A program made the translations under genes and the position numbers. The notes beneath the pieces are model-generated. The model had not been told where the DNA came from. It did no database searches and saw nothing but the letters and a program-made list of their open reading frames with translations. This document shows positions 1,084 through 22,586 of a stretch of 24,000 nt of DNA, in pieces; positions within the stretch are counted from its first letter, which is position 1; each line of letters begins with the position of its first letter. The DNA is from Paenibacillus sp. An7 (GTDB lineage Bacteria > Bacillota > Bacilli > Paenibacillales > Paenibacillaceae), in contig NZ_WTWX01000009.1 in assembly GCF_009870785.1 (NCBI RefSeq), forward strand, positions 135,562 to 159,561, written 5' to 3'.

Positions 1084-1270
1084 CGAGTATGCTGTAAATT
1101 ATGTGCGAATGATACGGTGCATATGTCGTGCCGTCATTTGCCGTATTTCATATATTGAGGTAGAGCCATTGAGCCATGATCCTTCAAGTGCACAATCGAA
1201 GGAGGTGAACAACGCACATCCTTTCACTCGCTACCTTTAGGTAAGAAAGCAGGAAGGTTGTACGCCCGAG

Positions 1271-2689: not shown

Positions 2690-2713
2690 CTTCATGAAAA
2701 AGGAGGGGTCACC

Positions 2714-7271: not shown

Positions 7272-7287
7272 GGAAGGGGGAAAGCGA

Positions 7288-7869
7288 GTGTATCATGAAA
7301 TACAGAAGACTGATTTTTTACCATTACTCAGTGAATTACTTCGGTTCTCAGATAGTGTGCTTGATGTTGGCAGCGGTCTAGGTGTTTTACTAGAATATTA
7401 CGAGTCCAGGCTCATAGTAGCACTGGATATCCACCGGCCCTATCTGGAACATCGCGTCTACCGAGCTCCACATGTCATCCCCCTGAATGCAGATGCGAAA
7501 ATATTAGATCAATTATTTCTTCCTAATTCATTTTCTGCGGTAACCATGATTGACTCTTTGGAACACTTTACAAAAGAAGATGGAACCTCCATCCTTCAGC
7601 AAGCCGAAAAAATCGCCAAGAATCGGATTATTATTTTTACACCGCGCGGCTTTTTTCCTCAAGAAGGAGTCGATCACTACAACTTACAGGGTGAAGTGTA
7701 TCAAAATCATTACAGTGGTTGGGAAGCAGAGGAACTTGAAAGCATTGGATATCAGGTCATTATCCTTAAAGGATTTCACAATCAAAAGAACCCCTCTTTC
7801 GAGGAGTCGTATGGAACAGAACATGAGCCTGTTGATGCCCTATTGGCCTGGAAGATCCTTGATGAGTAA
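7288..7869 (+). CDS. Class I SAM-dependent methyltransferase
   Basis: GTG start 7 nt after a G-rich SD (GGGAAGGGGG). Motif I is VLDVGSGLG, with the acidic post-I ALDI and motif II-like AVTMIDSLEH. Confidence 0.7.
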   Translation: MYHEIQKTDFLPLLSELLRFSDSVLDVGSGLGVLLEYYESRLIVALDIHRPYLEHRVYRAPHVIPLNADAKILDQLFLPNSFSAVTMIDSLEHFTKEDGTSILQQAEKIAKNRIIIFTPRGFFPQEGVDHYNLQGEVYQNHYSGWEAEELESIGYQVIILKGFHNQKNPSFEESYGTEHEPVDALLAWKILDE

Positions 7870-7887
7870 AAGTGAGGTGAGATGCTT

Positions 7888-8589
7888 GTGAATAGCAAAC
7901 CTGTCGTGACCATCGTCATTCCCTTTTATAATTGCAAATATATTGGAGAAGCCATCGAGAGTGCTTTACAGCAAACCTATAACCATATTGAAGTTATTGT
8001 TGTAGATGATGGATCAACTCAGCATACAGAACTCATTACACCTTATAAAGATCAAATTCGCTATATCCGTAAAGTGAATGGCGGGACAGCTACGGCACTA
8101 AATACAGGAATTGTACATGCGAAGGGGCAGTATTTTGCCTGGCTGAGCAGTGATGATGCCTTTCTTCCCCATAAAGTGGAGACACAAGTGAATTATATGC
8201 TTGAAAAAGGCTTATCTTTTACCCAATCGGCTTATCATTATATGAATTCACTTAGTGAGCAGACTGAAACGATCTATCCGAAACTCGGAAGCAGGTCAGA
8301 CATGATTCATACTCTTTTATCGTATTGTCCGATCAACGGTTGTTCCGTCATGCTCGGTATGCAGGTATTCGGTAAAGTAGGACTGTTCAATCCGAACTTT
8401 CGCTATGCACATGATTATGAGATGTGGCTCAGATTACTTCCGTATTATGAACTTGGATGCGTGGATATCCCGCTGATCAAGTATCGGATGCACGAACAGA
8501 TGGGGACTGCAAGACATATGGAAGAGATCGAAAAAGAGGTAGCTGCCATTCAGAATCTTCATCGGTCTGCTTTGCTATCTTTACTGTGA
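7888..8589 (+). CDS. GT2 family glycosyltransferase (paralog B)
   Basis: I prefer in-frame GTG 7888 (GAGGTG at 7874-7879, 8-nt spacer) to ATG 7882, which is only 2 nt from the SD. It gives (M)NSKPVVTIVIPFYN, parallel to the paralog A start MNSLPLVTVVIPFYN. Motifs: EVIVVDDGST, WLSSDD. Confidence 0.85.
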   Translation: MNSKPVVTIVIPFYNCKYIGEAIESALQQTYNHIEVIVVDDGSTQHTELITPYKDQIRYIRKVNGGTATALNTGIVHAKGQYFAWLSSDDAFLPHKVETQVNYMLEKGLSFTQSAYHYMNSLSEQTETIYPKLGSRSDMIHTLLSYCPINGCSVMLGMQVFGKVGLFNPNFRYAHDYEMWLRLLPYYELGCVDIPLIKYRMHEQMGTARHMEEIEKEVAAIQNLHRSALLSLL

Positions 8590-9657
8590 ATGGATGGAGG
8601 TGAAGAGCAGTTGCGTTACATTTTACCTGTATACACGTTATGTCACGGCGGAGCACAGCGAATGATCGCGGAACTTGCGAATCGGCTTGTCGACACGGGG
8701 CATGAAGTTTTGATTGTAATGCCAAGCCAAGGTGTAGTGGAATATGAGATCAAAGCACGAATTTTGCAAGTGAAGGAGACCATTTTACAATCACGCCATA
8801 TCCCTAAGGGGGATGTCGTTTTATCTAATTTTTACACAACAGCTTTTCCGGCGCAGCAAGCCAGCGAAGAAGGCAAAGGGCTGCATGTAAGGTTGTCCTT
8901 GTGTTATGAGCCTACTTTTCTGAGAGATAACCAATATTCATTTCCTTCCTATCATCTAACCCCTCATTTACTTGTACTTTCCAGGTGGCAGCAAGATATG
9001 ATTTTTCTTAATCATGGAATAAAGGGCAGAATTGTACCTATAGGTGTCAGCCGCTTTTTTCATAATATGCATATTCGGGAACAATTAAATGGTCCGCTGC
9101 GTATTACTTCGATCTACCGGAAAGAAGAAGGGGATTTTTCGTGGCATCGGGAACAAAAATATTTACTTGCTCAGCTTGATCTTGTGAAAGCCGCTCATCC
9201 AGAAGTGAGTTTGAACTTAATAACACCTCCTGGCGAATATGCAGACTCCGAGGATATACAGTTTCTTCAATCGACGGGAAAATATAATATCTATACTCCA
9301 GAGAACGATGAAGAATTGAGATATCATTATAACCAGACCGATATCTATGTTAGTTCAGGTTCATATGATACAGGTTCACTTCCGGGTCTTGAAGCGATGA
9401 GATGCGGAGCAGCTCTTGTCGCTTGTTATTCAGGAGGAAACACGGAATATGCTATGCATGAACGAAACTGTCTTATGTCTTATCGATACGAGAATCGGTT
9501 AGCTAAAGATGTAATCAGGCTGATTGAAAATGATCATCTGAGGTTAAAACTGGCGAAGAATGGGGAACGCGACTCAAGTGTCTTCACCTGGGAGAAAAGT
9601 TATTCCGAGCTGGAGCGGATTGTGAACGATATCGTGAGCAGAGTCCGTGCTATTTAG
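8590..9657 (+). CDS. GT4-type glycosyltransferase
   Basis: 355-aa ORF. The N-terminal CHGGAQRMIAELANRLVDTGHEVLIV and C-terminal LPGLEAMRCGAALVACYSGGNTEY (E-x7-E) are typical of GT-B/GT4. ATG 8590 directly abuts the upstream TGA. An alternative TTG at 8611 follows GGAGG (8596-8600). Confidence 0.75.
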   Translation: MDGGEEQLRYILPVYTLCHGGAQRMIAELANRLVDTGHEVLIVMPSQGVVEYEIKARILQVKETILQSRHIPKGDVVLSNFYTTAFPAQQASEEGKGLHVRLSLCYEPTFLRDNQYSFPSYHLTPHLLVLSRWQQDMIFLNHGIKGRIVPIGVSRFFHNMHIREQLNGPLRITSIYRKEEGDFSWHREQKYLLAQLDLVKAAHPEVSLNLITPPGEYADSEDIQFLQSTGKYNIYTPENDEELRYHYNQTDIYVSSGSYDTGSLPGLEAMRCGAALVACYSGGNTEYAMHERNCLMSYRYENRLAKDVIRLIENDHLRLKLAKNGERDSSVFTWEKSYSELERIVNDIVSRVRAI

Positions 9658-9743: not shown

Positions 9744-11021
9744 TTAACGATATAAAAGATCTTGTTTTTCTTTTTGAGAAGCCGCTTTTTTTCCGAAAAA
9801 CAGTGTTTTGGTGAAAAATACCCTGGCATATCTGTAATTGACAACGATAGCTAACACAATACTGATCAGATTGATCGCAATGGCCAGTTCAAATACACTT
9901 CTAACATGGAAATGCTCCATTAGCAGGCCAGTGACAAAAGGAATTGTCGTATAGGAAATGGAGGTAGCGGTGTACATGAAACCGGTAATCTGTCCTTTTC
10001 GTTCACTAAAAAATTCACTCATCACAGTAAGCGATAACTGCAATACGCCTGAAATTGTAAAACCAATTAACAAGACAGCTGCAATCATTGCCATTTGAGA
10101 TTTCACGGTCAGAAGCAGTATAAACGCAAACAAGGAAAGAATGGGATATAAGAGAACGACACTCACAGGTTTTAACCATTTGCTAAGTGCAATAACAAGA
10201 AAGAATACAGAGACTAAGGAGCCGATATTATAGTAGCTAATCAGCTTAAGCGAATCTGCTTCTGTTAAGCCTATCATCTGTTGTCCATAAGTAGGGAGCC
10301 AGAGTTGCATAACATATAAAAGAGCAGGTCCCGTGAAACCAAGTAAGATTAAGCAAATTCCCTCTAGCCTAAAGCGTGGCTGAGAATGATATACCGGTTT
10401 TTTCGGTACTTCTTTCGTGATGGTTTCATCATCTTTTTCTTCGTCTTCGCACTTCATACTCGGAAACTTCGCTCTGTAGATCAAAATCGTATTCAGAAGA
10501 AAAATGATAGCAGGCAGGAAGAAGGCATATCCATAAAACCAATCTTGATTCATGATAAATAAAATGATGATCGGCAGCAGCGATGCTCCTACCGAGATCA
10601 CACCTCTAACTAATACCGTTGCTGAGCCAGCTGCTTTTGGAAAGGCTTCTATAAGCGCTGGATAGGTACCCGAATCCATACAAGCATTGGCAACCCCTGC
10701 GAGCACTGCAAAAATAACGGCTGTTCCTAAGTTTGGACTGAGCGGAATACCGACCAGGAAGACGGCCATGAGAATACCTGCAATGATAATAAACGGTTTT
10801 CGTCCAAATCGATCTGATAATAAGCCTGATACGTATAGTGTAGCAAGGCGGACAAAACAGATGGCTGATACAAGCAAGCTGACACCGGCTGCATTCGTAT
10901 GAAGAGATTCGGTTAGAAATGACATATGAGATGCCAAAATAATATTAACCATCCCGTATAAGAAATAGTTGATGTATATTCCACAAGCTGCGTGAAGATA
11001 ACTATTTTTCAGGGTATTCAT
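9744..11021 (-). CDS. MFS transporter (YdiM/YdiN-like by recollection); paralog of 15547-16761
   Basis: The sequence is hydrophobic with multiple membrane spans. It carries the MFS loop motif GLLSDRFGRKP and a charged central loop. I prefer ATG at 11021 (GGTGGAG at 11034-11028, 6-nt spacer) to the ORF-track GTG at 11033. Confidence 0.85.
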   Translation of the reverse strand: MNTLKNSYLHAACGIYINYFLYGMVNIILASHMSFLTESLHTNAAGVSLLVSAICFVRLATLYVSGLLSDRFGRKPFIIIAGILMAVFLVGIPLSPNLGTAVIFAVLAGVANACMDSGTYPALIEAFPKAAGSATVLVRGVISVGASLLPIIILFIMNQDWFYGYAFFLPAIIFLLNTILIYRAKFPSMKCEDEEKDDETITKEVPKKPVYHSQPRFRLEGICLILLGFTGPALLYVMQLWLPTYGQQMIGLTEADSLKLISYYNIGSLVSVFFLVIALSKWLKPVSVVLLYPILSLFAFILLLTVKSQMAMIAAVLLIGFTISGVLQLSLTVMSEFFSERKGQITGFMYTATSISYTTIPFVTGLLMEHFHVRSVFELAIAINLISIVLAIVVNYRYARVFFTKTLFFGKKAASQKEKQDLLYR

Positions 11022-11127
11022 GATGTACTCCACCTAACCGATAATGATAGTGAAAAAAATCACAAACGATAACACAATAACATAAAAAAATGGATTGAAA
11101 CTCTCAAACTGGAGTATAAAGTACAAT

Positions 11128-11208: not shown

Positions 11209-12105
11209 CTACTTAATACTTCCCTGACAATGTGCAATGACATAATCCCGAAATGCAATGGCTGCGGGTGATAAATAACGATTTTTTACTGTAGCCATAT
11301 AGATATATCGCTCATAGCTTGGGTTAGAGATGGGCAGTGCTTTGACCTGAAAATGATTTAGTGTGCTGATCCGGGGCATAATGCCAATTCCGTAATTTAC
11401 AGATACAAGTCCTGCCATCGCATTATCCTCCTCAATCTCACAGATAATGTGCGGAGTGACGTCCACTTGGGCAAATAGGTCGTCAATAATGGGCCTTACA
11501 CCGCTCGCCTCATTAAAGAAAATGAATGGATACCCGGCTGTATCTTTCAAATCAATAGAATCCTGATTCGCTAAAGGATGCTCTGGATGAACAATCACTA
11601 CCAGTTCTTCTTTTGTGACGGGGATAAACTCAATATGTTCTTGTTCTTCAGGGAGAAAGGAACAGAACGCGATATCAAAGGTGTCATTTTTTAATTCCTG
11701 AATTAAAGTTTGTGTATTTCCTTGATGAAAAGAGAGCGTAATATCTTTGAACTCCTCACGAGAAGTAAAGGATTGAATCAGAGAAGGGGCAAAGTGCGGT
11801 CCGAGTGTGTAGATAAAAGCTAGATCAACTCGGCCATGATTGGGACTAGCAAGCTCCCGGATTTTATGCTCACCTTTACTAAGCTCAGACAAAGCCTTGT
11901 CAACATGTTCGAGGAATACACGACCATACTTGGTCAGACGGACATTCCGTCCTTTTTTCTCGAATAAGGGAACGCCAAGTTTCTTCTCTAGTTCTGCGAT
12001 GGCGTGACTTAGACTGGGCTGTGTAATATGCAGTTTAGCTGAAGCCTGGGTGAAGTGTTCTAGTTCAGCTAGGACTTGAAAGTACTGTAGATGCCTAAGA
12101 TTCAT
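11209..12105 (-). CDS. LysR-family transcriptional regulator
   Basis: N-terminal wHTH MNLRHLQYFQVLAELEHFTQASAKLHITQPSLSHAIAELEKKLGVPLFEKKGR, plus a LysR substrate-binding type C-terminus. SD AGGAAG lies 8 nt upstream. The gene is divergent from the 12467 operon. Confidence 0.9.
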   Translation of the reverse strand: MNLRHLQYFQVLAELEHFTQASAKLHITQPSLSHAIAELEKKLGVPLFEKKGRNVRLTKYGRVFLEHVDKALSELSKGEHKIRELASPNHGRVDLAFIYTLGPHFAPSLIQSFTSREEFKDITLSFHQGNTQTLIQELKNDTFDIAFCSFLPEEQEHIEFIPVTKEELVVIVHPEHPLANQDSIDLKDTAGYPFIFFNEASGVRPIIDDLFAQVDVTPHIICEIEEDNAMAGLVSVNYGIGIMPRISTLNHFQVKALPISNPSYERYIYMATVKNRYLSPAAIAFRDYVIAHCQGSIK

Positions 12106-12159: not shown

Positions 12160-12174
12160 ATAGATAAAATCTAT
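12160..12174. promoter_or_regulatory. LysR-type T-N11-A box (ATAGAT-AAA-ATCTAT perfect inverted repeat)
   Basis: ATAGATAAAATCTAT lies in the divergent lysR/operon intergenic region and contains T-N11-A dyad symmetry. It overlaps the motif shared with the MFS promoter. Confidence 0.45.
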
Positions 12175-12243: not shown

Positions 12244-12364
12244 CTGAATGAAATTGAATTAGATAATGAATAGTGACTAGACTTACCAACAAACGAAAAA
12301 AAGAACAGATGATCTCTCACAACACTAGAGCCGCTCGCTTCAGCGGTTATATTTTAGACCTGAC

Positions 12365-12382
12365 ATGTGAATTAATTCACAT
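12365..12382. promoter_or_regulatory. Perfect 18-bp palindrome ATGTGAATTAATTCACAT: Rex-type (TTGTGAA-N4-TTCACAA) or Crp/Fnr-type (TGTGA-N6-TCACA) operator
   Basis: Read directly. Both half-sites are perfect, and it lies 85-102 nt upstream of the 12467 start codon. A further TTCACAT copy occurs at 12390-12396. Confidence 0.5.
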
Positions 12383-12466: not shown

Positions 12467-14452
12467 ATGTATCCTACGATTTTTTCACCCTTAACTGTGA
12501 AAAGCATGACCCTCAAGAACCGAATTGTCATGCCGCCGATGGGAACGAACTTTGCCGGTACAAACGGTGAAATGACACCAAACCATATGAAATATTATGA
12601 GCAACGGGCGAAAGGCGGAACCGGTCTAATTATTGTAGAAAATGCTTGTCTCGATTTCCCTTTAGGCTCCAATGGAACGACCCAGCTGCGTATAGACCAT
12701 GATCGTTATATTCCAGGGTTCTACGAGCTGACAGAACGTCTTCATAATCAAGGTGCCAAAGTAGCGATTCAAATTAACCATGCAGGTGCTTCTGCAGTTC
12801 CGGATCGAATTGGACAGCAGCCTGTATCCTCTTCTAATATTCCTTCGAAAGCAGGCGGAGCGGTTCCTCGCCCGCTTACCAAAGAAGAAATTCTAGAGAT
12901 TGTAGAGAAGTACGGAAAAGCAGCAAAACGAGTGAAAATGGCAGGTTTTGATGCGATAGAAATTCACGCAGGACACTCCTATTTGCTCTGTCAGTTCTTG
13001 TCTCCTGTATATAACAAACGTACAGATGAGTTTGGCGGCAGTTACGAGAATCGTGCTCGCTTCGCTCGCATGGTTATTGACCGGATCAGAGCAGAGGTTG
13101 GACCAATGTTCCCGATCATGCTTCGAATCAGTGCGGATGAATTTGTTGCCGGAGGCAACACTTTAGAAGATTCACTCCAGCTTCTTGATTATCTGCATGA
13201 GGAAGTAGACGTCATTAATGTGTCCGCGGCGCTGAATGATTCCCTGCAATATCAGATTGATCAAATGAGTCTGCCTGATGGATGGCGCTCCTATCTGGCA
13301 AAAGCAGTACGTGATAAATTTAATAAACCGACGATTGCGAGCGGTAATTTCCGTCATCCACAGGTGGCTGAAAATGTACTCTCTAAAGGAGAAGCGGATC
13401 TCATTGCGATCGGGCGCGGACTTATCGCTGATCCTGATTGGGTAAGCAAAGTAAGCCGTGGTGAAGAAGAAATGCTTCGTAAATGTATTTCTTGTAACAT
13501 TGGATGTGCTGGTCACCGAATTGCACTCAATCGTCCAATTAAATGTACGGTAAATCCAGATGTCATCAATGGAGATGAATATAAAGATAAGCAAGTGAAG
13601 AAGCAAACGAATGTTGTAGTTATCGGCGGAGGTACAGCCGGTCTAGAGGCGGCATGTACAGCAGCAGAAGTAGGTTGCAATACATTCCTAATTGAACAGA
13701 AATCGTATCTCGGCGGACTAGCTGCTGAAATCTCAAGATTGCCGGACAAAAAACGAATTGCTGATTTCCCTAAATATTTAAATCAAAGAAGCAAACGGTT
13801 GAAAAATCTTATTACCTTTACGGATACCGTTGCCGATATCGCTCGAATCGAGAACTTGAAGCCGGATGTGATCGTGAATGCAACAGGATCTAAGCCTTTG
13901 CTTCCGCCAATTCAAGGATTGTTAGAACATATTGATAAGCCGGGTAGTCGTGTTCATTCTATTTTCAGTCTGCTGAGTGACGTGAATCAGTTCCCTAATA
14001 TGGAAGGAAAGAAAGTAGCTGTTATCGGTGGTGGTGCAGTTGGCCTGGATGTAGTTGAATTTTTCTCATCTCAAAAAGCAGAGGTTACCATTGTAGAACG
14101 ACTTCCTGAACTAGGTAAGGATCTTGATATTATTACTAGAATTTCTATGATGGACATGCTGAAGAAACATGAAGTTGATGTGAGAACAAGCACATCCTTG
14201 GTTGAAGTGGCGGGGGATCATTTCAAACTAGAATATGAGGGTGAAGTGAGCTCTCTTGATTTTGACTTTGGATTTGTCTGCCTGGGTATGAGACCAGAAC
14301 GTCCTGAACTCAGTGAGGTAGAGAAGCATTTTATTCCTCAGGGAGTAGAAGTTATTAATATTGGAGATAGTCTCGGCGCACGTAAAATCTTAGATGGGGT
14401 ACGCGAAGGGAGAAATATCCTTTCTACCTTGAAAAAGATAGGTTCCTTGTAA
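12467..14452 (+). CDS. FMN/[4Fe-4S]/FAD NAD(P)H-dependent oxidoreductase of the 2,4-dienoyl-CoA reductase (FadH) / 2-enoate reductase family
   Basis: GGAGG lies 8 nt upstream. The OYE-like N-terminus includes LKNRIVMPPMGTN, QINHAGA and EIHAGHSYLLCQFLSP. The Cys cluster CISCNIGC-x12-C is at 13484-13546. Two dinucleotide folds are present: VVVIGGGTAGLEAA and VAVIGGGAVGLD. Confidence 0.85.
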   Translation: MYPTIFSPLTVKSMTLKNRIVMPPMGTNFAGTNGEMTPNHMKYYEQRAKGGTGLIIVENACLDFPLGSNGTTQLRIDHDRYIPGFYELTERLHNQGAKVAIQINHAGASAVPDRIGQQPVSSSNIPSKAGGAVPRPLTKEEILEIVEKYGKAAKRVKMAGFDAIEIHAGHSYLLCQFLSPVYNKRTDEFGGSYENRARFARMVIDRIRAEVGPMFPIMLRISADEFVAGGNTLEDSLQLLDYLHEEVDVINVSAALNDSLQYQIDQMSLPDGWRSYLAKAVRDKFNKPTIASGNFRHPQVAENVLSKGEADLIAIGRGLIADPDWVSKVSRGEEEMLRKCISCNIGCAGHRIALNRPIKCTVNPDVINGDEYKDKQVKKQTNVVVIGGGTAGLEAACTAAEVGCNTFLIEQKSYLGGLAAEISRLPDKKRIADFPKYLNQRSKRLKNLITFTDTVADIARIENLKPDVIVNATGSKPLLPPIQGLLEHIDKPGSRVHSIFSLLSDVNQFPNMEGKKVAVIGGGAVGLDVVEFFSSQKAEVTIVERLPELGKDLDIITRISMMDMLKKHEVDVRTSTSLVEVAGDHFKLEYEGEVSSLDFDFGFVCLGMRPERPELSEVEKHFIPQGVEVINIGDSLGARKILDGVREGRNILSTLKKIGSL

Positions 14453-14585
14453 GATCAACAGAGGTGTCTGCGTGCTAGAATAAAAAGTTCTGGCACGTGG
14501 CTACCGAGGGAATTACAAAGTTGACCGAGTTATGGTCTTGTCTTTGATAAATAATGAATATAAACAACTAGAGGAGATGTTAATC

Positions 14586-15449
14586 ATGGCAGAACGTATT
14601 TCAGGAAAAACAAAACTTATTGGTTTATTAGGAACTCCCATTTCTCACAGTTTGTCCCCAAAAATGCATAACGAAGCTTTCGCTAAACTCGGATTAGACT
14701 ATGTGTATTTAGCATTTGATGTGGATAATGAGCAGCTTCCTGGGGTAATTCAAGGTTTCCGCTCCCTTAATGTACGTGGTTGCAACGTGACGATGCCGAA
14801 TAAAACGGTTGTTCTTCAATATTTAGATAAGTTATCTCCTGCAGCTGAACTTGCAGGAGCAGTGAACACTGTAGTGAACGATAATGGGGTGCTTACAGGT
14901 CATATCACCGATGGAGTAGGGTACATGAGAGCACTCAAAGAAGATGGTATTGATATCATTGGCAAAAAAATGACGATTACAGGTGCCGGCGGAGCAGCCA
15001 CAGCGATCTGTATTCAAGCAGCACTGGACGGTGTTAAAGAAATCTCTATTTTTAATAGAAAAGATGCATTCTATGAGCGTGCGGAACAAACGGTTAGAAA
15101 TATTATGGAAAAGACAGATTGCAAAGTGAAGCTGTTTGACCTGGAAGACACGAACACTCTCTATAAGGAAATTGAAGACAGTGCAATCTTTACGAATGCA
15201 ACAGGCGTGGGCATGAAACCACTCGTAGGTCAAAGCCTCATTACCGACCCTGCTGTACTGCGCAGTGATCTGATTGTATCTGATGTCGTTTATATTCCTG
15301 AAAAAACACGTCTGCTTGAGATGGCAGAAGAACAAGGATGCCGTACAATTAACGGTCTTGGCATGATGCTATGGCAAGGTGCAGAAGCATTCAAAATCTG
15401 GACAGGGGAAGACATGCCTGTTGATTACATTAAAGAATTGTTGTTCTAG
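14586..15449 (+). CDS. ydiB: Quinate/shikimate dehydrogenase, YdiB type
   Basis: I prefer ATG 14586 (GAGGAG at 14571-14576, 9-nt spacer) to the ORF-track start at 14532. Motifs shared with E. coli YdiB, from memory: LIGLLGTPISHSLSP, NVTMPNK, NTVVNDNG, TDG-G, TGAGGAATAI, FNRKDAFY, TDCKV, GMKPL, GMMLWQGAEAFKIWTG. Confidence 0.85.
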   Translation: MAERISGKTKLIGLLGTPISHSLSPKMHNEAFAKLGLDYVYLAFDVDNEQLPGVIQGFRSLNVRGCNVTMPNKTVVLQYLDKLSPAAELAGAVNTVVNDNGVLTGHITDGVGYMRALKEDGIDIIGKKMTITGAGGAATAICIQAALDGVKEISIFNRKDAFYERAEQTVRNIMEKTDCKVKLFDLEDTNTLYKEIEDSAIFTNATGVGMKPLVGQSLITDPAVLRSDLIVSDVVYIPEKTRLLEMAEEQGCRTINGLGMMLWQGAEAFKIWTGEDMPVDYIKELLF

Positions 15450-15546
15450 GAAGGCGTCTGCCTTCTCACGGCGACACTTGTGAAAAAATGAACAAACTAA
15501 TTCGATCTTAACAAATGAATCTACTCTAAAGGAGCAGTGGAATGTT

Positions 15547-16761
15547 GTGAAGAACAAGTATATGCCAACGGCATTAGCTTTGTATATTAACTATTTTGTA
15601 CATGGTATGGGTGCTATTATCCTGGCACAGAATATGGGGTTCCTAAGCGAACAGTTAAATACCGATAGCGCCGGAATTTCCTATGTTATATCCGCACTCG
15701 GTATTGGACGATTACTCGTTCTGTTTATTTCGGGTGTACTGTCTGACAAATTAGGACGGAAACCATTCGTATTTATCGGGATGGCCATGTATGCCGTATT
15801 CTTCGTCGGAATTCTGTTATCACCGAACGTGACCGTCGCCTTTATCTTTGCCTTGCTCGCAGGGATGGCGAACTCGGTGCTTGATTCTGGTACCTATCCG
15901 GCCCTCATGGAAGCTTTTCCGAAATCTGCAGGTACAGCAAATGTTATTATCAAAGCGTTTATTTCCGGTGGTCAATTTGCACTTCCAATGATCATCAGTG
16001 TACTCATTAGCAGCAACTTGTATTATGGTTACTCCTTCTTGATCTGTGTAGCGATCTTTATCGTCAATGGCTTGTTCCTTATTCGCTTGCCATTCCCTGA
16101 TCAGGAGCAGCAACAAGAACAGCAAGAAACAACTACCGTAGCAGATAAGAGTCATTCCGGTAGAAAACCTAGCTTCTGGATTGAAGGACTATGCCTCATT
16201 CTGATTGGTTATACTGCGACAGCAACGTTTTATCTGATTTCTGTATGGCTTCCAACGTATGGAGAGCAAGTAGCAGGGATGTCAAACACCTCATCATTGC
16301 AGCTTATTAGTTACTACAGTATGGGCTCCTTGATCTCTGTGTTTGTTACTTCTTTCCTTGTGAAGAGTCTTGTGAAACCTGTCACTTTTGTATTTATTTA
16401 TCCGTTAATTTCTTTTATAGCACTGGTTGTACTATGGGCTTTCCCATCTGCGGCAGTATGTGTAATCGCAGGATTTGTGATTGGTTTCTCCGCTGCTGGC
16501 GGCGTATTGCAGCTCGCACTTACAACGATGTCTGAGCTCTTTCCAACTAGTAAAGGTAAAATTACCGGTATTGTATATACCGCATCAAGCCTTGCGACAT
16601 TCTCAATTCCTGTAATTACAGGTATACTATCCAAAACGAGTATCAGCAGTATTATTATGTTCGATGCGATCGTTACGCTTGTCGGTGTTATTCTAGCTAT
16701 TATAGTCAACATCCGTTACCGGAAAGTAATGAACGCACCACTAAAAGCAGTACAAGGCTAA
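15547..16761 (+). CDS. MFS transporter (YdiM/YdiN-like); probable quinate/shikimate permease by context
   Basis: Multi-span hydrophobic protein with GVLSDKLGRKP and DSGTYPALMEAFPKSAG motifs. It aligns without gaps to the 9744-11021 product over the N-terminal half. The GTG start is 12 nt after AAAGGAG, so the start is uncertain (alternative ATG 15562). Confidence 0.8.
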   Translation: MKNKYMPTALALYINYFVHGMGAIILAQNMGFLSEQLNTDSAGISYVISALGIGRLLVLFISGVLSDKLGRKPFVFIGMAMYAVFFVGILLSPNVTVAFIFALLAGMANSVLDSGTYPALMEAFPKSAGTANVIIKAFISGGQFALPMIISVLISSNLYYGYSFLICVAIFIVNGLFLIRLPFPDQEQQQEQQETTTVADKSHSGRKPSFWIEGLCLILIGYTATATFYLISVWLPTYGEQVAGMSNTSSLQLISYYSMGSLISVFVTSFLVKSLVKPVTFVFIYPLISFIALVVLWAFPSAAVCVIAGFVIGFSAAGGVLQLALTTMSELFPTSKGKITGIVYTASSLATFSIPVITGILSKTSISSIIMFDAIVTLVGVILAIIVNIRYRKVMNAPLKAVQG

Positions 16762-16827
16762 AGTTAACAGGCAGTTCTAAATTATAGCTGTAATGACCTT
16801 ATATAGAAGACAAAGGAGTCTATTAAT

Positions 16828-17601
16828 ATGCAAAATACGCTAAAACCCGTTATCGTTAAAAACGTCGCAATTGGCGAAGGCGCACCTAAAATTTGCGTTC
16901 CTCTCGTAGGAGAGACAGTTGAACAGTTAAAAGAAGAGGCAAATTTTCTAACATTCCAAGATTTTGATGTCATTGAATGGCGCGTCGATTTCTTTGAACA
17001 TGTAGAAGATATACAGAAAGTGAAAGAAGCTCTAGCGGAAATTCGCTCGATTCTTCCTACCCAGCCGATTGTCTTTACGTTCCGCAGCGCGAAAGAAGGC
17101 GGAGAAAAAGAAGTCAGCACCGCTTATTATGTAGAATTGAACCAAGCCATTGCGGCAACAGGACAAGTAGATATCGTGGATGCTGAATTGTTCACTGGGG
17201 ATGCAGAAGTAAAAGCAATTATTGATGCAGCACATAAGCATAATGTCTATGTGATCATCTCAAACCATGATTTTGATAAAACACCTTCTAAAGAAGAAAT
17301 CCTATCTCGCCTTCGTAAGGCACAAGAACTTGGCGGCGATATTCCGAAACTGGCAGCGATGCCGCAAAGTGTCTCTGATGTGCTGATGCTGATGGAAGCC
17401 ACTCATATCATGAAAGAAGAGTATGCGGATAGACCGATCATTACGATGTCCATGGCGGGCAAAGGTGTGATCAGCCGGATTGCGGGTGAACTGTTTGGTT
17501 CTGCACTCACATTTGGAGCTGCCAAAAAAGCATCCGCTCCAGGTCAGGTGCCTGTCGAAGAACTTCGCAGTATGCTGAACACGCTGCACAAGCATATGTA
17601 A
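16828..17601 (+). CDS. aroD: 3-dehydroquinate dehydratase, type I
   Basis: AAAGGAG lies 9 nt upstream. Motifs: KICVPLVG, IEWRVDFF, ISNHDFDKTP (catalytic His region), KLAAMP (Schiff-base Lys region), ITMSMAGKG. Confidence 0.9.
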   Translation: MQNTLKPVIVKNVAIGEGAPKICVPLVGETVEQLKEEANFLTFQDFDVIEWRVDFFEHVEDIQKVKEALAEIRSILPTQPIVFTFRSAKEGGEKEVSTAYYVELNQAIAATGQVDIVDAELFTGDAEVKAIIDAAHKHNVYVIISNHDFDKTPSKEEILSRLRKAQELGGDIPKLAAMPQSVSDVLMLMEATHIMKEEYADRPIITMSMAGKGVISRIAGELFGSALTFGAAKKASAPGQVPVEELRSMLNTLHKHM

Positions 17602-17618
17602 ATTTGAGACGTGAAAAG

Positions 17619-17650
17619 CGTTTGGACCTTTTGGGGTTCAAACGTTTTTT
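17619..17650 (+). terminator. Rho-independent terminator of the quinate/shikimate operon
   Basis: 10-bp stem, CGTTTGGACC (17619-17628) pairing with GGTTCAAACG (17635-17644) with one G-U pair, and a 6-nt loop, followed by T6 (17645-17650). Confidence 0.75.
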
Positions 17651-17775: not shown

Positions 17776-19971
17776 ATGAAACAAATGAAGCGCAGGTTAC
17801 TAGTTTTAATTACCATTTTAGGACTGCTTTGCTATCCTTTATCAGGGTACGCTCAGGCAGATGAGCTTGATTTTGAAGATCTATTTAACGAGGCAGTTAT
17901 TCTGTCCATTGGGAGCCCAAACGCCATCTATGATACGGAAGATCGTATTATTGATGAAAATAACTACAATATTGTACCGTATGTGAAAAGTCAACGAACA
18001 ATGGTGCCGCTGCGCTTTATTAGTGAAAGCCTTGGTGCACGAGTTGCCTGGAATCAAGCTACTTCTACCGCAACCATTACGCTTGCAGGAAAGGAAATAA
18101 AAATTACGCTAGGCAGCAAGACCATACTTGTGAACGGGAAAAAGACAGCACTTGACGCACCGGCAGAATATCAACAAGGCCGGACGTTTGTACCTATTCG
18201 TCTGATCAGTGAAACACTCGGTAAGAAGGTATTTTACAGCCGGGGAATTATCGTGATTAGTGAGAAAGCGATTCTACATCCGGTGCAAGATGCTGAGATT
18301 GTAGATTATTTAAAGTTTATTTTAGAACCCTATAACAAAAGTCCTTATACAGGTAAAAACTTAACAAATCAGCAAATCGCGGGTTTTGAACAAAGTGTTG
18401 TTGTATTGGAAGCACTGGATCGCAGCGGTGAATCTACCGGATTTGGCAGTGCATTTGCGGTAGGTTATGGTTTGTACTTAACGAATTATCACGTGATTAA
18501 TGAAGCAAGCAGTTATGTAATTTACACAGGGAAAGATCAAGTGTATGAAGCAGCAGGCATTGTCGCTGTGGACAAGATGAATGACCTGGCTTTAGTAAAA
18601 GCGAAGATACGGACGAATGTACCTCCGCTTCATATCGGTTCCACGCAGAACTTGGCGAAAGGACAAGCCGTTGTTGCGATTGGTAATCCGGAAGGGCTGC
18701 AAAACACCGTTTCGACGGGAGTGATAAGCGGACTTCGTGTCATTGATGGCCAAAGTTTGATTCAATTTACAGCGCCCATTGCTTCAGGCAGTTCGGGAGG
18801 AGCGCTATTTAATAAAAAAGGAGAAGTTATCGGCGTTACTTCTTCCAGTATTGATGAAGGGAATTTGAATTTTGCTGTTCCTATTGATTATGCGAAATCT
18901 TGGATTAGCAAATATAATTCAGCAGCTTTTTCAAAAATAACGGTATTAAATCAAGATCAATTTAGAGAACCTTCGAATGGATCTGGAACAGTTACACCGG
19001 AAGAAACTCCAAAGCCTCCAGCAGTTACACCACCGACAGAAAATGTAAGTGTACTCAATGAAGTTATACAGGAAGCAGTAACCGATCCATCGAGGCCCGT
19101 TGTCTATGCTATCGATGACACTGAATCTACTATTGTCTCCTATGACCTTGCTAAGAAAAAAGTAACCAAGATTTCCACTTCATTTAGCAAGGCGCCACGG
19201 AAACTCGTATATGCAAGTGGAGAACTTTATGTCATTTTTAGTGATGGAGAATACAGTCCCTATCGGTTTGATGAAGAGCAAGGAGGAACCGTGAGAGTAC
19301 TTGATCCTTCTACACTACAAGTAATAGATGAGTGGGATGTGGATATTGATCCTTACGATATTGCGGCTGATGAATCCGGACATGTATATCTTACCTCAGG
19401 CTCCGGTCAGTGGACCTATATGAAAAGTTATGACCGGACGACCAAGAGGGAGCTTTCTTCGTCTCGCGTATATCACCAAACGAAAATCATGATGCATCCA
19501 TCAGAGAATCGGATTTATTCTATCACTACTCCGTTAAGTCCGAGAGATATGGATGTGTTCCGGCTCACGGATGGGAAGATCACAACCACCTATGATTCTC
19601 CCTATCATGGAGACTATAAATTGTCTACGGTATTTGGGATTACGCCAGATGGTAAGTTTATTGTGAACGGTGCGGGTTCGATCTTTACTGCTACCAATAA
19701 TAAGACGAGTGATATGAACTATGCAGGTACGATGGATAAGTTTGATATCTTTGTTGCGAATAAGAATCATACGGAAAAATTTTATACAGCTACAAAAAAT
19801 GTGATTAACCAAGTGGATACAAACACGTTATCCACTACGAAAACGTACAAGACACAAGGCACCATCGTAAAACTGCTGATGACAGATACTCAGCTTATTG
19901 CGATTACTAAAGTCACTGTGACTGGCTCAGCGCTAACGAGAAATGCGATAGAATTGATTGCAGAGCTCTAG
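17776..19971 (+). CDS. Secreted multidomain trypsin-like serine protease (copper-amine-oxidase-N-like stalk, S1-type protease domain, Pro/Thr linker, beta-propeller-like C-terminal domain)
   Basis: AAGGAG lies 5 nt upstream. Signal peptide MKQMKRRLLVLITILGLLCYPLSGYAQA. Two repeats of the stalk-domain type (VPLRFISESLGARVAW, VPIRLISETLGKKVFY). Catalytic triad candidates are His in TNYHVI (18490-18492), Asp in NDLALVK (18583-18585) and Ser in GSSGGALF (18793-18795). Linker TPEETPKPPAVTPPTEN. Confidence 0.8.
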   Translation: MKQMKRRLLVLITILGLLCYPLSGYAQADELDFEDLFNEAVILSIGSPNAIYDTEDRIIDENNYNIVPYVKSQRTMVPLRFISESLGARVAWNQATSTATITLAGKEIKITLGSKTILVNGKKTALDAPAEYQQGRTFVPIRLISETLGKKVFYSRGIIVISEKAILHPVQDAEIVDYLKFILEPYNKSPYTGKNLTNQQIAGFEQSVVVLEALDRSGESTGFGSAFAVGYGLYLTNYHVINEASSYVIYTGKDQVYEAAGIVAVDKMNDLALVKAKIRTNVPPLHIGSTQNLAKGQAVVAIGNPEGLQNTVSTGVISGLRVIDGQSLIQFTAPIASGSSGGALFNKKGEVIGVTSSSIDEGNLNFAVPIDYAKSWISKYNSAAFSKITVLNQDQFREPSNGSGTVTPEETPKPPAVTPPTENVSVLNEVIQEAVTDPSRPVVYAIDDTESTIVSYDLAKKKVTKISTSFSKAPRKLVYASGELYVIFSDGEYSPYRFDEEQGGTVRVLDPSTLQVIDEWDVDIDPYDIAADESGHVYLTSGSGQWTYMKSYDRTTKRELSSSRVYHQTKIMMHPSENRIYSITTPLSPRDMDVFRLTDGKITTTYDSPYHGDYKLSTVFGITPDGKFIVNGAGSIFTATNNKTSDMNYAGTMDKFDIFVANKNHTEKFYTATKNVINQVDTNTLSTTKTYKTQGTIVKLLMTDTQLIAITKVTVTGSALTRNAIELIAEL

Positions 19972-20027: not shown

Positions 20028-20073
20028 AGACGGCAGACAAACGAGCTTCCTCTAGTTTGTCTGCCGTCTTTTT
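20028..20073 (+). terminator. Rho-independent terminator (perfect 15-bp stem) shared by convergent genes
   Basis: AGACGGCAGACAAAC (20028-20042) pairs perfectly with GTTTGTCTGCCGTCT (20055-20069), with a 12-nt loop, followed by a T-run to 20073. The stop codon of the minus-strand GT4 gene (20073-20075) abuts the hairpin. There is no U-tract in the minus orientation. Confidence 0.8.
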
Positions 20074-21494
20074 CATTTTTCTTCCTTTATTACCTTCCGA
20101 TCAGGCAGGCGGTAATCGGCGGGAAGTTTGCTCATTAAGTCAGCAAGAAGTTCGGAAGCAATCGGCAGATGAGGAAGAGAGAAAGCTGGTGATGTACTTA
20201 GGAATTCCGTTCGTGCGTCTCTTCCGATTTTTACATCGGTCTTCTCGTCTTGCCCACGCTCCGCCATCCGATCCTTTTTGATATACCGCTCATAAACCGC
20301 AAGGGTATCCTTCGCCTGCCGTTCCAGTGAACGGTATTTACGTGCCCAGGTACGCGCTGCCGTTCCAACACGGGTTCTTACTTTAGGATGGGTGAGAAGG
20401 TAGTCAAGCTTGCGGGCAAGAGCGGCAGCATCAGAGGGAGGAACGACATAACCGGTCTTGCCCTCTACTACCATATCCGGCATTCCGGCGGTATCCGCCA
20501 CAATGACAGGAATTCCTGCAAGTTGTGCTTCCGTCACAGAGAAAGGCTGAGTATCCTGTAAACTCGGCTGTACATAGATATGGACGTTTTTTAGGAACGA
20601 AGGCACGTTATCGACCATCCCCCAGAATTTCACATGACCCTTTAATCCTTTGTTCTGAGTTTGTTCTTTATAAAGAGGGCCCATACTTCCTTCCCCGGCA
20701 ATCCAGATGACAAAATCCCCTCTGTACTTTTTCAGGATCGCGGCCGCTTCAAGCAGAACATGAATCCCTTTGATGTATTCCAAACGACCTGTAAAAGCAA
20801 TGACTTTCTTGTTAGGAGGAGCAGAATAGGAAGATTGTTTTGTTGCAAGCTCATCATACTGAACCAGGTCTACCGCATAAGGAATTCGGCTGAATGCAGC
20901 GCCAGGTGCCTGAAACTGCTGCATCAGCTGCTGAATCCAGCTCGATGAGACAATAAACCCATCGGATGCAGCGATGCCGAGTTGTTCCATCGTCTTATAG
21001 TATGTTCCGAGCGGGGTAAGTAAATAATCTTCTTTACGCGTATCAGGGTTTATCTGCAGTTCATCGAGATATCCTTCTAAATGCAGCGATCCATGGTAAC
21101 TTGTAACAAGCGGAACTTTGCGCTTCATCACACGGGAAATAGAGTATGCGCTAATCGGGTCTTGGGCATGAATTAGATCATAAGATTCGGTTCCAAGATA
21201 GGCCATTCCAAGTTCATAGGCATACCGATTCAGTTCTAAAAAAGCAAGATAGGGGTCCGCATGAAGTGCCGGAACATGATGGGGAGAGAGGCTTGAATGC
21301 AGAGCAGGGAGGACCGCCTTTTTTTCAAATAACCATCCCTTCTTTAGTATATAAACGGTCTCTTTCTGCATATCAGTTCCAATGACATCGACTTCTATTC
21401 CATGTTCCGCGTACCACTCTGATAATTGCCGAATATACGTCCAAATCCCCCCAAGGTTCTGAAGTCCCCAGAAGGTTGCCATGAGTATTTTCAT
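20073..21494 (-). CDS. GT4-type glycosyltransferase with a ~75-aa C-terminal extension
   Basis: 473-aa ORF. N-terminus MKILMATFWGLQNLGGIWTYIRQL...GIEVDVIG. GT-B C-terminal motif QPFSVTEAQLAGIPVIVADTAGMPDMVVEGKTGYVV. A non-GT tail follows residue ~395. Confidence 0.8.
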   Translation of the reverse strand: MKILMATFWGLQNLGGIWTYIRQLSEWYAEHGIEVDVIGTDMQKETVYILKKGWLFEKKAVLPALHSSLSPHHVPALHADPYLAFLELNRYAYELGMAYLGTESYDLIHAQDPISAYSISRVMKRKVPLVTSYHGSLHLEGYLDELQINPDTRKEDYLLTPLGTYYKTMEQLGIAASDGFIVSSSWIQQLMQQFQAPGAAFSRIPYAVDLVQYDELATKQSSYSAPPNKKVIAFTGRLEYIKGIHVLLEAAAILKKYRGDFVIWIAGEGSMGPLYKEQTQNKGLKGHVKFWGMVDNVPSFLKNVHIYVQPSLQDTQPFSVTEAQLAGIPVIVADTAGMPDMVVEGKTGYVVPPSDAAALARKLDYLLTHPKVRTRVGTAARTWARKYRSLERQAKDTLAVYERYIKKDRMAERGQDEKTDVKIGRDARTEFLSTSPAFSLPHLPIASELLADLMSKLPADYRLPDRKVIKEEK

Positions 21495-21515
21495 GAAGAA
21501 GTGTGCTCCTTCCTA

Positions 21516-22586
21516 TTAAAAAATAGCCAAGGCGTTCATCATTTGACGGAACGAATGAGCATAAGCACCTGGGGAGAATTGAGAGACAAGATACTCACGG
21601 CCTGCCTTTTGAATCTGCGTACGCATCGTATGATTGTTCATCAGTTCCAGGACCTCTTTTGCTGCCTGTTCGACCTCTCCAAGCGGATAAAATTTACCGG
21701 TTTGATTATGTGTAATGAACGCTCTTACGCCGTCAGAATCCGTGCTGACAACAGGACATTCACAGCTAATCGCTTCAGCTACCGCATACCCAAAGCCCTC
21801 CATAATTGACGTTGAGATCATAACCCCGCCTGATCTTGCTGCCATGGAATAATACATCGGCATCTTGGAGTGTGGAACGTTGCTAAAAATTCCGATTTTA
21901 TCTTCCAAATGGAGTGTTTTTAATGTTTCGTAGAACTGCTGTTCATCCGCTGAAAAGGCAAGGGTAGGGTCATGAAAAAACCATAGTCTTGCTTCTGGTT
22001 TTTCTTGAATTACGCGGTGACCAATGTGGAGAAATTCCCGCCAGTTTTTATTAAATTCAAGACGACCAACCCAGAGTAAGGCGGGGTAAGGGGGGATGTC
22101 GGTTTCAAGCGGGGCAAAGCTCGTTGTATCGAGCATTCCTTTAATAATGAACAAGTGCATAAAAGGGCACATGTCCAAAAAAAGTTGATGAAGATGGGTG
22201 GTTGGGGGAATAAGAACCGCATCTGCATAGGCTTGCAGATAAGGAGAAGCCATTTCGATGGTCTCAACAGCCGCTTCCTTTGTGCCAAGTCCTTGTGCCT
22301 CGAAGATGATTTTCCCTTTGTAATGAAGAAAAACACGGAGCCGTTCCAGCATATTAATATCCGAAGTAGAGATGACGGCATCATATTGCTGCTCTTCCAA
22401 AAGCGCACGAATCTCCTCATTATCTGACATGGTAAACACCGTACCTGTAGTATTCTGAAGTCCGGTGCCTGGCATGAGATATAAGGTATGTGCTTCGATC
22501 CCATGTTGTTTCAAGGCTGCACAGCGCAGCCGATTGAGCGTCTCCACACCGCCGCTTGGAATAAAGAAAGTAAACAGTACTTTCAA
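21516..22586 (-). CDS. GT4-type glycosyltransferase
   Basis: TTG start 8 nt after GGGAGGGG. Motifs: MKVLFTFFIPSGGVETL; EGFGYAVAEAISCECPVVSTDSDGVRAFITHNQTGKF (E-x7-E region). It lies 21 nt upstream of the next GT4 gene, so the two are a likely operon. Confidence 0.75.
   Translation of the reverse strand: MKVLFTFFIPSGGVETLNRLRCAALKQHGIEAHTLYLMPGTGLQNTTGTVFTMSDNEEIRALLEEQQYDAVISTSDINMLERLRVFLHYKGKIIFEAQGLGTKEAAVETIEMASPYLQAYADAVLIPPTTHLHQLFLDMCPFMHLFIIKGMLDTTSFAPLETDIPPYPALLWVGRLEFNKNWREFLHIGHRVIQEKPEARLWFFHDPTLAFSADEQQFYETLKTLHLEDKIGIFSNVPHSKMPMYYSMAARSGGVMISTSIMEGFGYAVAEAISCECPVVSTDSDGVRAFITHNQTGKFYPLGEVEQAAKEVLELMNNHTMRTQIQKAGREYLVSQFSPGAYAHSFRQMMNALAIF

Follow-up and report, generated by a model that had tools for sequence, protein, structure and literature searches.

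In a 24,000-nt stretch of the genome of Paenibacillus sp. An7 (contig NZ_WTWX01000009.1, positions 135,562 to 159,561; hereafter the window, to which all our statements on gene content refer), we describe a plus-strand operon encoding an iron-sulfur (Fe-S) flavoprotein, a quinate/shikimate dehydrogenase, a major facilitator superfamily (MFS) permease and a type I 3-dehydroquinate dehydratase (AroD), with a LysR-type regulator gene oriented divergently from it. We read this locus as a hydroaromatic-acid operon that would be controlled by a QuiR-type regulator and probably modulated by Rex, and in which the first enzyme would hydrogenate a ring C=C bond of a pathway intermediate; judging from the sequence, we give this reading an even chance of being right. 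The flavoprotein is a predicted ene-reductase carrying flavin mononucleotide (FMN), a [4Fe-4S] cluster and a flavin adenine dinucleotide (FAD)/NAD(H) module, and it falls into a clade of its own (designated ‘ER1’). Both the operon type (from Listeria) and the enzyme superfamily are already known; what is new is the distinct reductase clade tied to quinate/shikimate genes across Firmicutes, the predicted redox-sensor operator 5' of the reductase gene, and a directly testable assignment for an orphan reductive pathway.

The four plus-strand open reading frames (ORFs), the divergent regulator gene and a second MFS gene were found at the coordinates given by the initial annotation of the window, and its family calls (FMN/FAD flavoprotein, quinate/shikimate dehydrogenase, MFS permease, type I dehydroquinase) agreed with those obtained from Pfam and NCBIfam profiles under the curated NCBIfam cutoffs. 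The features of the locus are as follows:

9744..11033, minus strand: second MFS permease (MFS_1 at 4e-49), a paralogue of the operon permease.
11209..12105, minus strand: LysR-type regulator (HTH_1 and LysR_substrate), orthologue of Listeria QuiR (Lmo0488).
12160..12174, no strand: LysR-type transcriptional regulator (LTTR) box ATAGATAAAATCTAT, a T-N11-A dyad read from the sequence and a candidate QuiR site.
12329..12358, plus strand: terminator-like hairpin followed by a T-run in the 5' leader (-9.8 kcal/mol, z = -2.5).
12366..12381, no strand: perfect palindrome TGTGAATTAATTCACA, a candidate operator of Rex type (or Fnr/Crp type).
12467..14452, plus strand: reductase ‘ER1’ (661 aa, assigned through Pfam), orthologue of Listeria lmo0489.
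13484..13546, plus strand: CxxCxxxCx12C motif read from the sequence, predicted to bind [4Fe-4S] (C340, C343, C347, C360).
14463..14505, plus strand: stem-loop after the reductase stop codon, with a 14-bp core and without a U-run.
14586..15449, plus strand: quinate/shikimate dehydrogenase of the YdiB-like branch (listed ORF start 14532).
15547..16761, plus strand: operon MFS permease (MFS_1 at 4e-44).
16828..17601, plus strand: type I 3-dehydroquinate dehydratase, AroD (DHquinase_I at 2e-80; TIGR01093).
17613..17650, plus strand: intrinsic terminator of the operon (17-bp stem, -20.3 kcal/mol, z = -5.2, with a U-run).

The reductase joins an Oxidored_FMN TIM barrel (PF00724, E = 6e-79, residues 5-333, with the domain span given as 1-333) to a C-terminal Pyr_redox_2 domain (PF07992, residues 382-615, also matched by PF00070), and between the two domains lies the cysteine motif with the spacing C340-x2-C343-x3-C347-x12-C360. 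This cluster and two GxGxxG folds had already been pointed out in the initial annotation; the cysteines and both glycine motifs (G387/G389/G392 and G521/G523/G526) proved invariant in an alignment across 17 homologues. The nearest solved relatives in sequence are 2-naphthoyl-CoA reductase and Escherichia coli FadH (222-229 bits), and the AlphaFold model (predicted local distance difference test score 75), which gives the fold and not the substrate, resembles the same two enzymes (TM-score 0.85 to naphthoyl-CoA reductase, 6QKG, and 0.82 to FadH, 1PS9). We consider the three-domain Fe-S flavoprotein architecture predicted in this way to be secure.

The designation ‘enoate-reductase type’, as previously proposed, holds at the level of the superfamily and fails at the level of the 2-enoate reductase/FadH clade, which profile and structure searches had been expected to return; the protein belongs to a distinct clade instead. 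It scores below every NCBIfam equivalog cutoff: the best match, BaiCD (NF041087), was rejected at 467 bits against a cutoff of 825, and the equivalogs for the mycofactocin Old Yellow Enzyme (OYE) and for bilirubin reductase scored far under theirs. Orthology to the classical 2-enoate reductases (Enr/FldZ, EC 1.3.1.31), prompted by the UniRef name ‘Predicted enoate reductase’ on the homologue from Clostridium kluyveri, was rejected as well on account of low identity and a different active-site motif. The reductase is 32% identical to cinnamate reductase FldZ (sequence taken from the supplement of PMC5882074), whereas the characterised enoate reductases ER-BC, ER-CA, ER-CK, ER-CL and ER-MT share 50-82% of their residues with the C. 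tyrobutyricum enzyme (PMC5460604), which places it outside the classical clade. Its active-site segment reads EIHAGHSYLLCQF (HAGHSY, with OYE spacing) as opposed to EIHAVHEGYLLDQF (HAVHEGY) in that clade, and H167, H170 and Y172 align with H164, H167 and Y169 of YqjM, i.e. with the His-His-Tyr triad of Old Yellow Enzyme. FadH and naphthoyl-CoA reductase, on the other hand, lack the His pair (the M and E of VMGSEGY in FadH, 1PS9, stand opposite H167 and H170), by which a FadH-type 2,4-dienoyl-CoA reductase identity was ruled out. As the pair is absent from these reducers of CoA esters, the substrate of the window enzyme would be a free carbonyl- or carboxylate-activated alkene, and the label ‘2,4-dienoyl-CoA reductase’ found on homologues in databases is, from the triad, probably wrong.

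By these sequence comparisons, the reductase is a member of a separate and highly conserved clade and not a classical clostridial 2-enoate reductase. Identities within the clade are 67-77% for members from Paenibacillus, Bacillus, Robertmurraya, Niallia, Oceanobacillus, Listeria, Clostridium, Caloramator and Clostridioides, and about 60% for those from Lachnospiraceae; the database names that these homologues carry are generic only. One short metagenome contig (L092, 368-4624) holds two genes of the clade in tandem, the products of which are 59% and 56% identical to the window protein.

The same comparisons bear on a reading that had been offered as an alternative, namely that the flavoprotein reduces hydroxycinnamates (caffeate, p-coumarate) freed together with quinate from chlorogenic acids. 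Among related Fe-S flavoproteins there are indeed reducers of cinnamate and p-coumarate (FldZ, for example), and an esterase or alpha/beta-hydrolase gene stands near the cluster in C. kluyveri and in Clostridium sp. AWRP. However, with an identity of 32% to FldZ, HAGHSY in place of HAVHEGY, no esterase gene in the window or in most related loci, shikimate as the known ligand of the regulator, and a linkage to AroD and dehydrogenase genes instead of phenolic-acid genes, this alternative has lost ground and now seems to us very improbable.

The linkage to AroD and the dehydrogenase recurs throughout most of the related loci. We collected 102 related loci (reductase at least 55% identical) and counted neighbours in the 56 that extend over at least 5 kb on both sides: the dehydrogenase gene was present in 53, AroD in 53 and both in 51. 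About 95% of related loci thus show the linkage; they form 44 clusters at 90% identity and arrange the genes in more than 20 different ways, so that the synteny for which the initial annotation had advised a survey is confirmed as linkage in spite of shuffled order. The linked loci span Paenibacillus, Bacillus, Niallia, Listeria, Clostridium, Lachnospiraceae and human-gut metagenomes, a co-located MFS gene occurs in most of them, and all hosts of related loci are facultative or strict anaerobes. Among genome loci, 15 of 16 encode a reductase at least 62% identical to that of the window, and where both flanks are available AroD accompanies it in 14 of 14 and the dehydrogenase also in 13 of 14; a metagenome scan added a further 80 loci (55-74% identity), many of them from the human gut. 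The order of genes is LysR / reductase-dehydrogenase-AroD in Listeria monocytogenes, LysR / AroD-dehydrogenase-MFS-reductase in C. botulinum, LysR / AroD-dehydrogenase-reductase in C. kluyveri (together with a second reductase-dehydrogenase-MFS-MFS set), and LysR / AroD-dehydrogenase-reductase-TIM barrel-second reductase-second dehydrogenase-MFS-MFS in Clostridium sp. AWRP; in Clostridioides the reductase lies apart from LysR / AroD, and in Lachnospiraceae a regulator-dehydrogenase-permease-AroD block is divergent from the reductase gene. By a rough estimate, the chance of finding a given one-or-two-copy gene within 8 kb is well under 1%. That the reductase keeps company with the dehydrogenase and AroD across taxa supports its action on the C=C bond of an intermediate of their pathway.

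A hydroaromatic role is further suggested by the regulator. The effector domain of the window LysR protein matches PDB entry 5TED (‘Lmo0488 protein’) at 261 bits (E = 1e-76), and identities between window and Listeria loci amount to 59% for LysR, 68% for the reductase, 75% for the dehydrogenase and 63% for AroD, from which the window locus emerges as the orthologue of the Listeria QuiR-qui1 operon (lmo0488-0491). In the presence of its co-inducer shikimate, QuiR switches on both qui operons of Listeria, qui1 and qui2 (bioRxiv 10.1101/2025.04.08.647683), and the orthology of the regulators therefore argues for a role of the window operon in hydroaromatic metabolism. The T-N11-A box ATAGATAAAATCTAT is kept in the loci of two sister strains, L001 and L002, and a similar box, ATAGAAAAAATCTAT, occurs between lmo0488 and lmo0489 in Listeria. 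As a separate observation on the Listeria locus (L017/L018, 3248-5011), there is a reverse-transcriptase gene (RVT_1) some 3 kb upstream of that for QuiR.

On the route that we propose, the MFS permeases would import quinate and shikimate, the presumably NAD-dependent YdiB-like dehydrogenase would oxidise them to 3-dehydroquinate and 3-dehydroshikimate, and AroD would dehydrate 3-dehydroquinate, giving rise to a conjugated C1=C2 bond; within the reductase, electrons would pass from NADH to FAD, [4Fe-4S] and FMN. Two orders of reaction may be envisaged from this point onwards: either the reductase would hydrogenate the C=C bond of 3-dehydroshikimate and the dehydrogenase would then reduce the ketone, or the dehydrogenase would first reduce 3-dehydroshikimate and the reductase would then hydrogenate the C=C bond of shikimate. 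In both cases the same three enzymes would yield dihydroshikimate at the net expense of one NADH per molecule, and plant hydroaromatic acids would serve as an electron sink under oxygen limitation. We infer the reductive direction from gene content: AroD makes an alkene activated by carbonyl and carboxylate, and no aromatising or ring-cleaving gene is present in the window. Indeed, the earlier remark that dehydroshikimate dehydratase and protocatechuate ring-cleavage (pca) genes are missing was correct, since none was found among the genes of the 24 kb. With regard to the substrate, the His pair and the analogy with reducers of ring enones favour 3-dehydroshikimate, whereas shikimate is favoured by the Fe-S/FAD module (typical for poorly activated enoates) and by the fact that gut bacteria reduce shikimate directly; genomics cannot separate the two. 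The latter bacteria, Eggerthella lenta and Sutterella wadsworthensis, use shikimate as an electron acceptor and turn it into hydroshikimate by reduction of its enoate group, which provides a precedent for a reductive sink.

The region upstream of the reductase gene is in line with such a role. The palindrome TGTGAATTAATTCACA, situated 86-101 nt upstream of the reductase ATG and kept in L001 and L002, is the sole exact match in the window (0.11 matches expected at up to one mismatch), and it agrees with the Rex operator consensus TTGTGAAnnnnTTCACAA (PMC4162614) at 12 of 12 core positions and, with flanks, at 16 of 18. Similar boxes precede the reductase gene in Bacillaceae loci, and also the dehydrogenase and AroD genes, and in loci from Lachnospiraceae and other Clostridia the Clostridia-type Rex box TGTTAAnnnnTTAACA (PMC8457756) stands 40-150 nt upstream of the reductase gene. 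When one representative per lineage was searched with taxon-matched boxes (TGTGAA..TTCACA for Bacillales, TGTTAA..TTAACA for Clostridia), 9 of the 41 lineages had a box in the 250 bp upstream, as compared to 0.23 expected from composition-matched shuffles (P ~4e-12). Because the consensus of the box changes with the taxon, Rex is favoured over Fnr/Crp, and we regard the element as probably a Rex-type, NADH-sensing operator. Rex derepresses genes for NADH reoxidation when NADH is high, and the presence of a Rex-type operator ahead of the operon would hence be consistent with an NADH-sink role.

Other boxes of this kind were seen in the vicinity of hydroaromatic genes. A degenerate Rex/Fnr-like box (AGTGAAAAAAATCACA, ~11049-11064, 2 mismatches) lies just upstream of the start of the minus-strand second MFS gene, and resembles a 1-mismatch box upstream of the reductase gene in Bacillus massiliigorillae (L005). 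The loci L003, L005 and L013 (Peribacillus, Bacillus) each hold two dehydrogenase paralogues; in L003 and L005 each paralogue has its own exact Rex-type box, and in L013 an exact box belongs to the dehydrogenase and a one-mismatch box to AroD. The genes of these three loci are probably separate, individually redox-controlled transcription units and not one operon.

Many relatives of the window locus carry a second module, composed of a QuiC2-like TIM-barrel protein, a second Fe-S flavin reductase of 640 aa (33% identical to the first), a second dehydrogenase (54% identical to that of the window) and MFS permeases. It occurs in L022 (10076-15400) and also in L030, L034, L060, L098 and L019/L020; neither the QuiC2 dehydratase nor the second dehydrogenase of such a qui2-type module was found in the window. 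In Clostridium sp. AWRP both modules are united in one cluster, in which the TIM-barrel protein is the orthologue of Lmo2234 (PDB 2G0W, 324 bits), and we take it from these matches that some anaerobes keep in a single cluster the genes that in Listeria are distributed over qui1 and qui2. The product of lmo2235 in qui2 is presumably a flavin oxidoreductase too. Whiting and Coggins reportedly observed in the 1970s that lactobacilli reduce quinate and shikimate further, to dihydroxycyclohexanecarboxylate. The extended clusters fit a further dehydration and two reductions to this compound, and the fact that they hold the enzyme set needed for it lends support to a reductive route. On this basis we tentatively suggest that the clade may represent the missing C=C reductase of the lactobacillus pathway which, together with the second module (in Clostridia, Lachnospiraceae and Listeria), would lead from dietary quinate through dihydroshikimate to dihydroxycyclohexanecarboxylate and so act as an NADH sink in the cytoplasm, in some of the lineages under the control of Rex; in this full form we rate the proposal as possible but somewhat doubtful.

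The extended clusters could also mean that the place of the reductase is at a later stage of an anaerobic fermentation of hydroaromatic acids, its substrate being some other cyclohexene or cyclohexenone carboxylate formed after further dehydration. Two non-orthologous reductases, two dehydrogenases and a TIM-barrel dehydratase imply at least two C=C reductions, and fermenting bacteria that degrade quinate and shikimate are said to have been described by Brune and Schink in 1992. The window and many other loci, however, hold only reductase, dehydrogenase and AroD, for which 3-dehydroshikimate and shikimate are the sole alkenes, and we accordingly find action on a later intermediate improbable.

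Several observations weigh against hydrogenation of a pathway intermediate as the function of the window reductase. Cultures of Listeria fed with shikimate accumulated protocatechuate, and qui1 and qui2 were interpreted as a protocatechuate route through QuiC2 (bioRxiv 10.1101/2025.04.08.647683); the reaction of lmo0489 itself ‘remains to be elucidated’ (PMC10269891), and a Listeria transposon-sequencing (Tn-seq) screen grouped lmo0491 (aroD) with genes of shikimate biosynthesis (PMC11970672). By analogy with the behaviour of lmo0491, AroD and the dehydrogenase of the window may also be used in biosynthesis. A few members of the clade (L100, L024) lack the linkage and have unrelated neighbours. 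As a doubly activated enone, 3-dehydroshikimate has no obvious need for an Fe-S/FAD module. With respect to Rex, the palindrome of Bacilli also matches the Fnr/Crp-type TGTGA-N6-TCACA, the lineages with Rex-like boxes are a minority, and no Rex-type box was found in the loci of Listeria or Clostridium sensu stricto (including upstream of aroD, at up to one mismatch). The earlier proposal of an NADH-sink C=C reductase is supported in part: it is strengthened by linkage, QuiR orthology and the Rex-type operator, and weakened by the interpretation of the orthologous Listeria operon as protocatechuate-forming.

That interpretation, transferred to the window, would make of the operon the first half of a route from quinate and shikimate via 3-dehydroshikimate to protocatechuate, with a QuiC2-type dehydratase encoded elsewhere and the flavoprotein as an accessory that deals with reactive by-products or quinones. 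The locus is orthologous to lmo0488-0491, for which the published model (YdiB, AroD, SdhD and QuiC2 forming protocatechuate, which Listeria cannot use) and the observed accumulation exist (bioRxiv 10.1101/2025.04.08.647683), and QuiC2-like genes are linked to the reductase in L022, L030, L034, L060 and L098. On the other hand, no dehydratase is present in the window and the most conserved gene of the cluster would be left without a function; in the same Listeria study, qui1 and qui2 are each noted to hold further ‘uncharacterized’ genes (bioRxiv 10.1101/2025.04.08.647683). The clusters are also found in C. kluyveri, in acetogens and in Lachnospiraceae of the gut, mostly together with one or two ene-reductases, and in our judgement strict anaerobes would not be expected to aromatise quinate as a dead end. 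Furthermore, Rex-type control suits the consumption of NADH better than a redox-neutral dehydration, and if the work on Listeria was done in air, as may be the case, an Fe-S enzyme sensitive to oxygen could have been inactivated. We consider the protocatechuate reading unlikely.

The Tn-seq behaviour of lmo0491 also speaks for a salvage of environmental quinate and shikimate into chorismate, in which the reductase would be an unrelated redox housekeeping enzyme of the ‘NADH oxidase’ type, co-regulated by coincidence. Permeases, dehydrogenase and AroD can be read as running towards shikimate, and lmo0491, having scored together with the biosynthetic genes of the shikimate pathway, may double as the working biosynthetic dehydroquinase of Listeria. 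Neither chance nor housekeeping, however, explains a linkage of about 95% over more than 20 gene orders and two bacterial classes, and clusters with two dehydrogenases and two reductases would be left unexplained; salvage is, to our mind, distinctly improbable.

The other proteins of the locus were assigned from the following matches. The dehydrogenase consists of Shikimate_dh_N (PF08501) and SDH_C (PF18317) domains and scores 521 bits with NF001313 (cutoff 431) and 345 bits with the YdiB equivalog NF009390 (cutoff 349); its top PDB matches are the Listeria structures 3TNL/3TOZ (473 bits), followed by YdiB (1NPD/3T4E, ~328 bits). Its true start is most likely at 14586 (287 aa), 18 codons 3' of the mechanical ORF start at 14532: the former is preceded by a Shine-Dalgarno sequence (GGAGA), homologues align from residue 19, and the ATG at 14532 is missing in strain L001. 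AroD reaches 256 bits with TIGR01093 (cutoff 139), and its translation contains DIPKLAAM and SNHDF, which we take to be the motifs of the Schiff-base lysine and of the catalytic histidine, respectively. The two MFS permeases of the window are about 46% identical to each other, and the second adjoins the LysR gene in L001 and L002 too; from sequence and position, the operon permease is a candidate hydroaromatic acid/H+ symporter and the second a candidate transporter of quinate/shikimate or of the product.

The initial annotation had further claimed a strong terminator only after the last gene. The strong terminator after aroD is indeed there, but the transcript would also contain a stem-loop without a U-run between reductase and dehydrogenase (14463-14505) and a hairpin in the leader. 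The spacer that contains the stem-loop folds as a whole at -35.7 kcal/mol (z = -3.3). The stem-loop is strong and structurally conserved, a hairpin being kept in L002 via compensatory changes; it may stabilise the reductase transcript, or act as a partial terminator that decouples the reductase from the downstream genes. The leader hairpin (12329-12358), placed between the LTTR-type box and the palindrome, has a stem that is kept and a loop that varies in L001 and L002, and might serve as an attenuator or point to a second promoter that lies downstream of it. No riboswitch or other known RNA was detected in the 361-nt leader (no Rfam match at E <= 1), and a small conserved leader ORF was considered and rejected, its frame being broken by indels in L002.

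Glycosyltransferase, sugar-epimerase, protease and ABC genes make up the remainder of the window. Polysaccharide/glycosylation genes (glycosyltransferase, UDP-GlcNAc 2-epimerase, sugar dehydratase/epimerase, methyltransferase) lie on both sides (82-9657 and 20073-22586), and the six-gene hydroaromatic island seems to have been inserted into a locus for polysaccharides or glycosylation. The product of 17776-19971 is a secreted-looking protein of 731 aa with copper-amine-oxidase N-terminal-like and trypsin-like peptidase domains, the C-terminal ~350 residues of which have no Pfam match. The closest genome locus is that of Paenibacillus sp. J45TS6 (reductase 99%, regulator 98%, permease and AroD 95% identical).

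In soil, silage, fruit, coffee and the gut, quinate and shikimate rank with the most abundant acids of plant origin, and that they can be hydrogenated anaerobically has been on record for some five decades. In the literature that we searched we found no published gene for a reductive quinate/shikimate pathway in Firmicutes, and a bioinformatics paper on 2-enoate reductases (2-ER) makes no mention of shikimate (PMC11759058). The earlier statement that no ene-reductase gene had been assigned accordingly stands for this route and this enzyme family, and does not extend to Eggerthella lenta, where flavin reductase genes have been tied to the conversion of shikimate to hydroshikimate. Taken together, our observations narrow the gap to one sharply defined clade, 60-77% identical over Bacilli and Clostridia, common in human-gut metagenome contigs and represented in a Listeria operon that has been studied in part, which we consider the best candidate so far for this long-known, gene-less and NADH-disposing hydrogenation. 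Should the assignment be correct, an orphan reaction would gain its gene, and the widespread annotations ‘2,4-dienoyl-CoA reductase’ and ‘NADH oxidase’ would be corrected. The gut hydrogenation of quinate from coffee and fruit, presumed to be the first stage towards cyclohexanecarboxylate, benzoate and hippurate, would acquire a genetic basis, and a new electron sink would be added to what is known of the Rex regulon and of redox balancing in fermentation. The protocatechuate formed through qui1/qui2 in Listeria could then represent an aerobic overflow of an anaerobic reductive route, by which the protocatechuate model would be up for re-examination, and biocatalysis would obtain an ene-reductase for polyhydroxylated cyclohexene carboxylates.

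Among known systems, aerobic qui/qsu and pca catabolism (Acinetobacter, Pseudomonas, Corynebacterium) shares uptake, dehydrogenase and dehydroquinase with the window as far as 3-dehydroshikimate, but continues through dehydroshikimate dehydratase and protocatechuate ring cleavage; we know of no ene-reductase in this route. Listeria qui1 is the closest counterpart, having like the window a divergent LysR gene, reductase, dehydrogenase and AroD, and a similar intergenic T-N11-A box. The window differs from it by an extra MFS permease inside the operon and another beside the regulator, as well as by the Rex-type palindrome and the leader hairpin, neither of which was found in the Listeria region; moreover, the Listeria system has been read as protocatechuate-forming, with its reductase left without an assigned function. 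The classical 2-enoate reductases have the same build (FMN barrel, four-cysteine Fe-S motif, FAD/NADH domain, ~660 aa) and are enzymes of anaerobes that use NADH to reduce carboxylate-activated alkenes, a trait that we predict for the window enzyme as well, from which they are nevertheless set apart by identity (32% to FldZ) and active-site motif (HAVHEGY instead of HAGHSY). FadH and 2-naphthoyl-CoA reductase, although the best matches in sequence and fold, act on CoA thioesters and lack the His-His pair of OYE. The bile-acid Fe-S flavoenzymes BaiCD/BaiH provide the best NCBIfam match, without the window protein being a member (467 versus 825 bits), and reduce the ring-enone bond of 3-oxo-delta-4 substrates, which is analogous to the reduction of 3-dehydroshikimate. 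Finally, the shikimate-induced flavin reductases of Eggerthella lenta and Sutterella wadsworthensis catalyse the same net reaction as the one proposed here. We assume from the paper's description that they are fumarate-reductase-like and not of the OYE/Fe-S type, and while they are of a respiratory kind and linked to formate-dependent growth, the window enzyme would serve the recycling of NADH in the cytoplasm.

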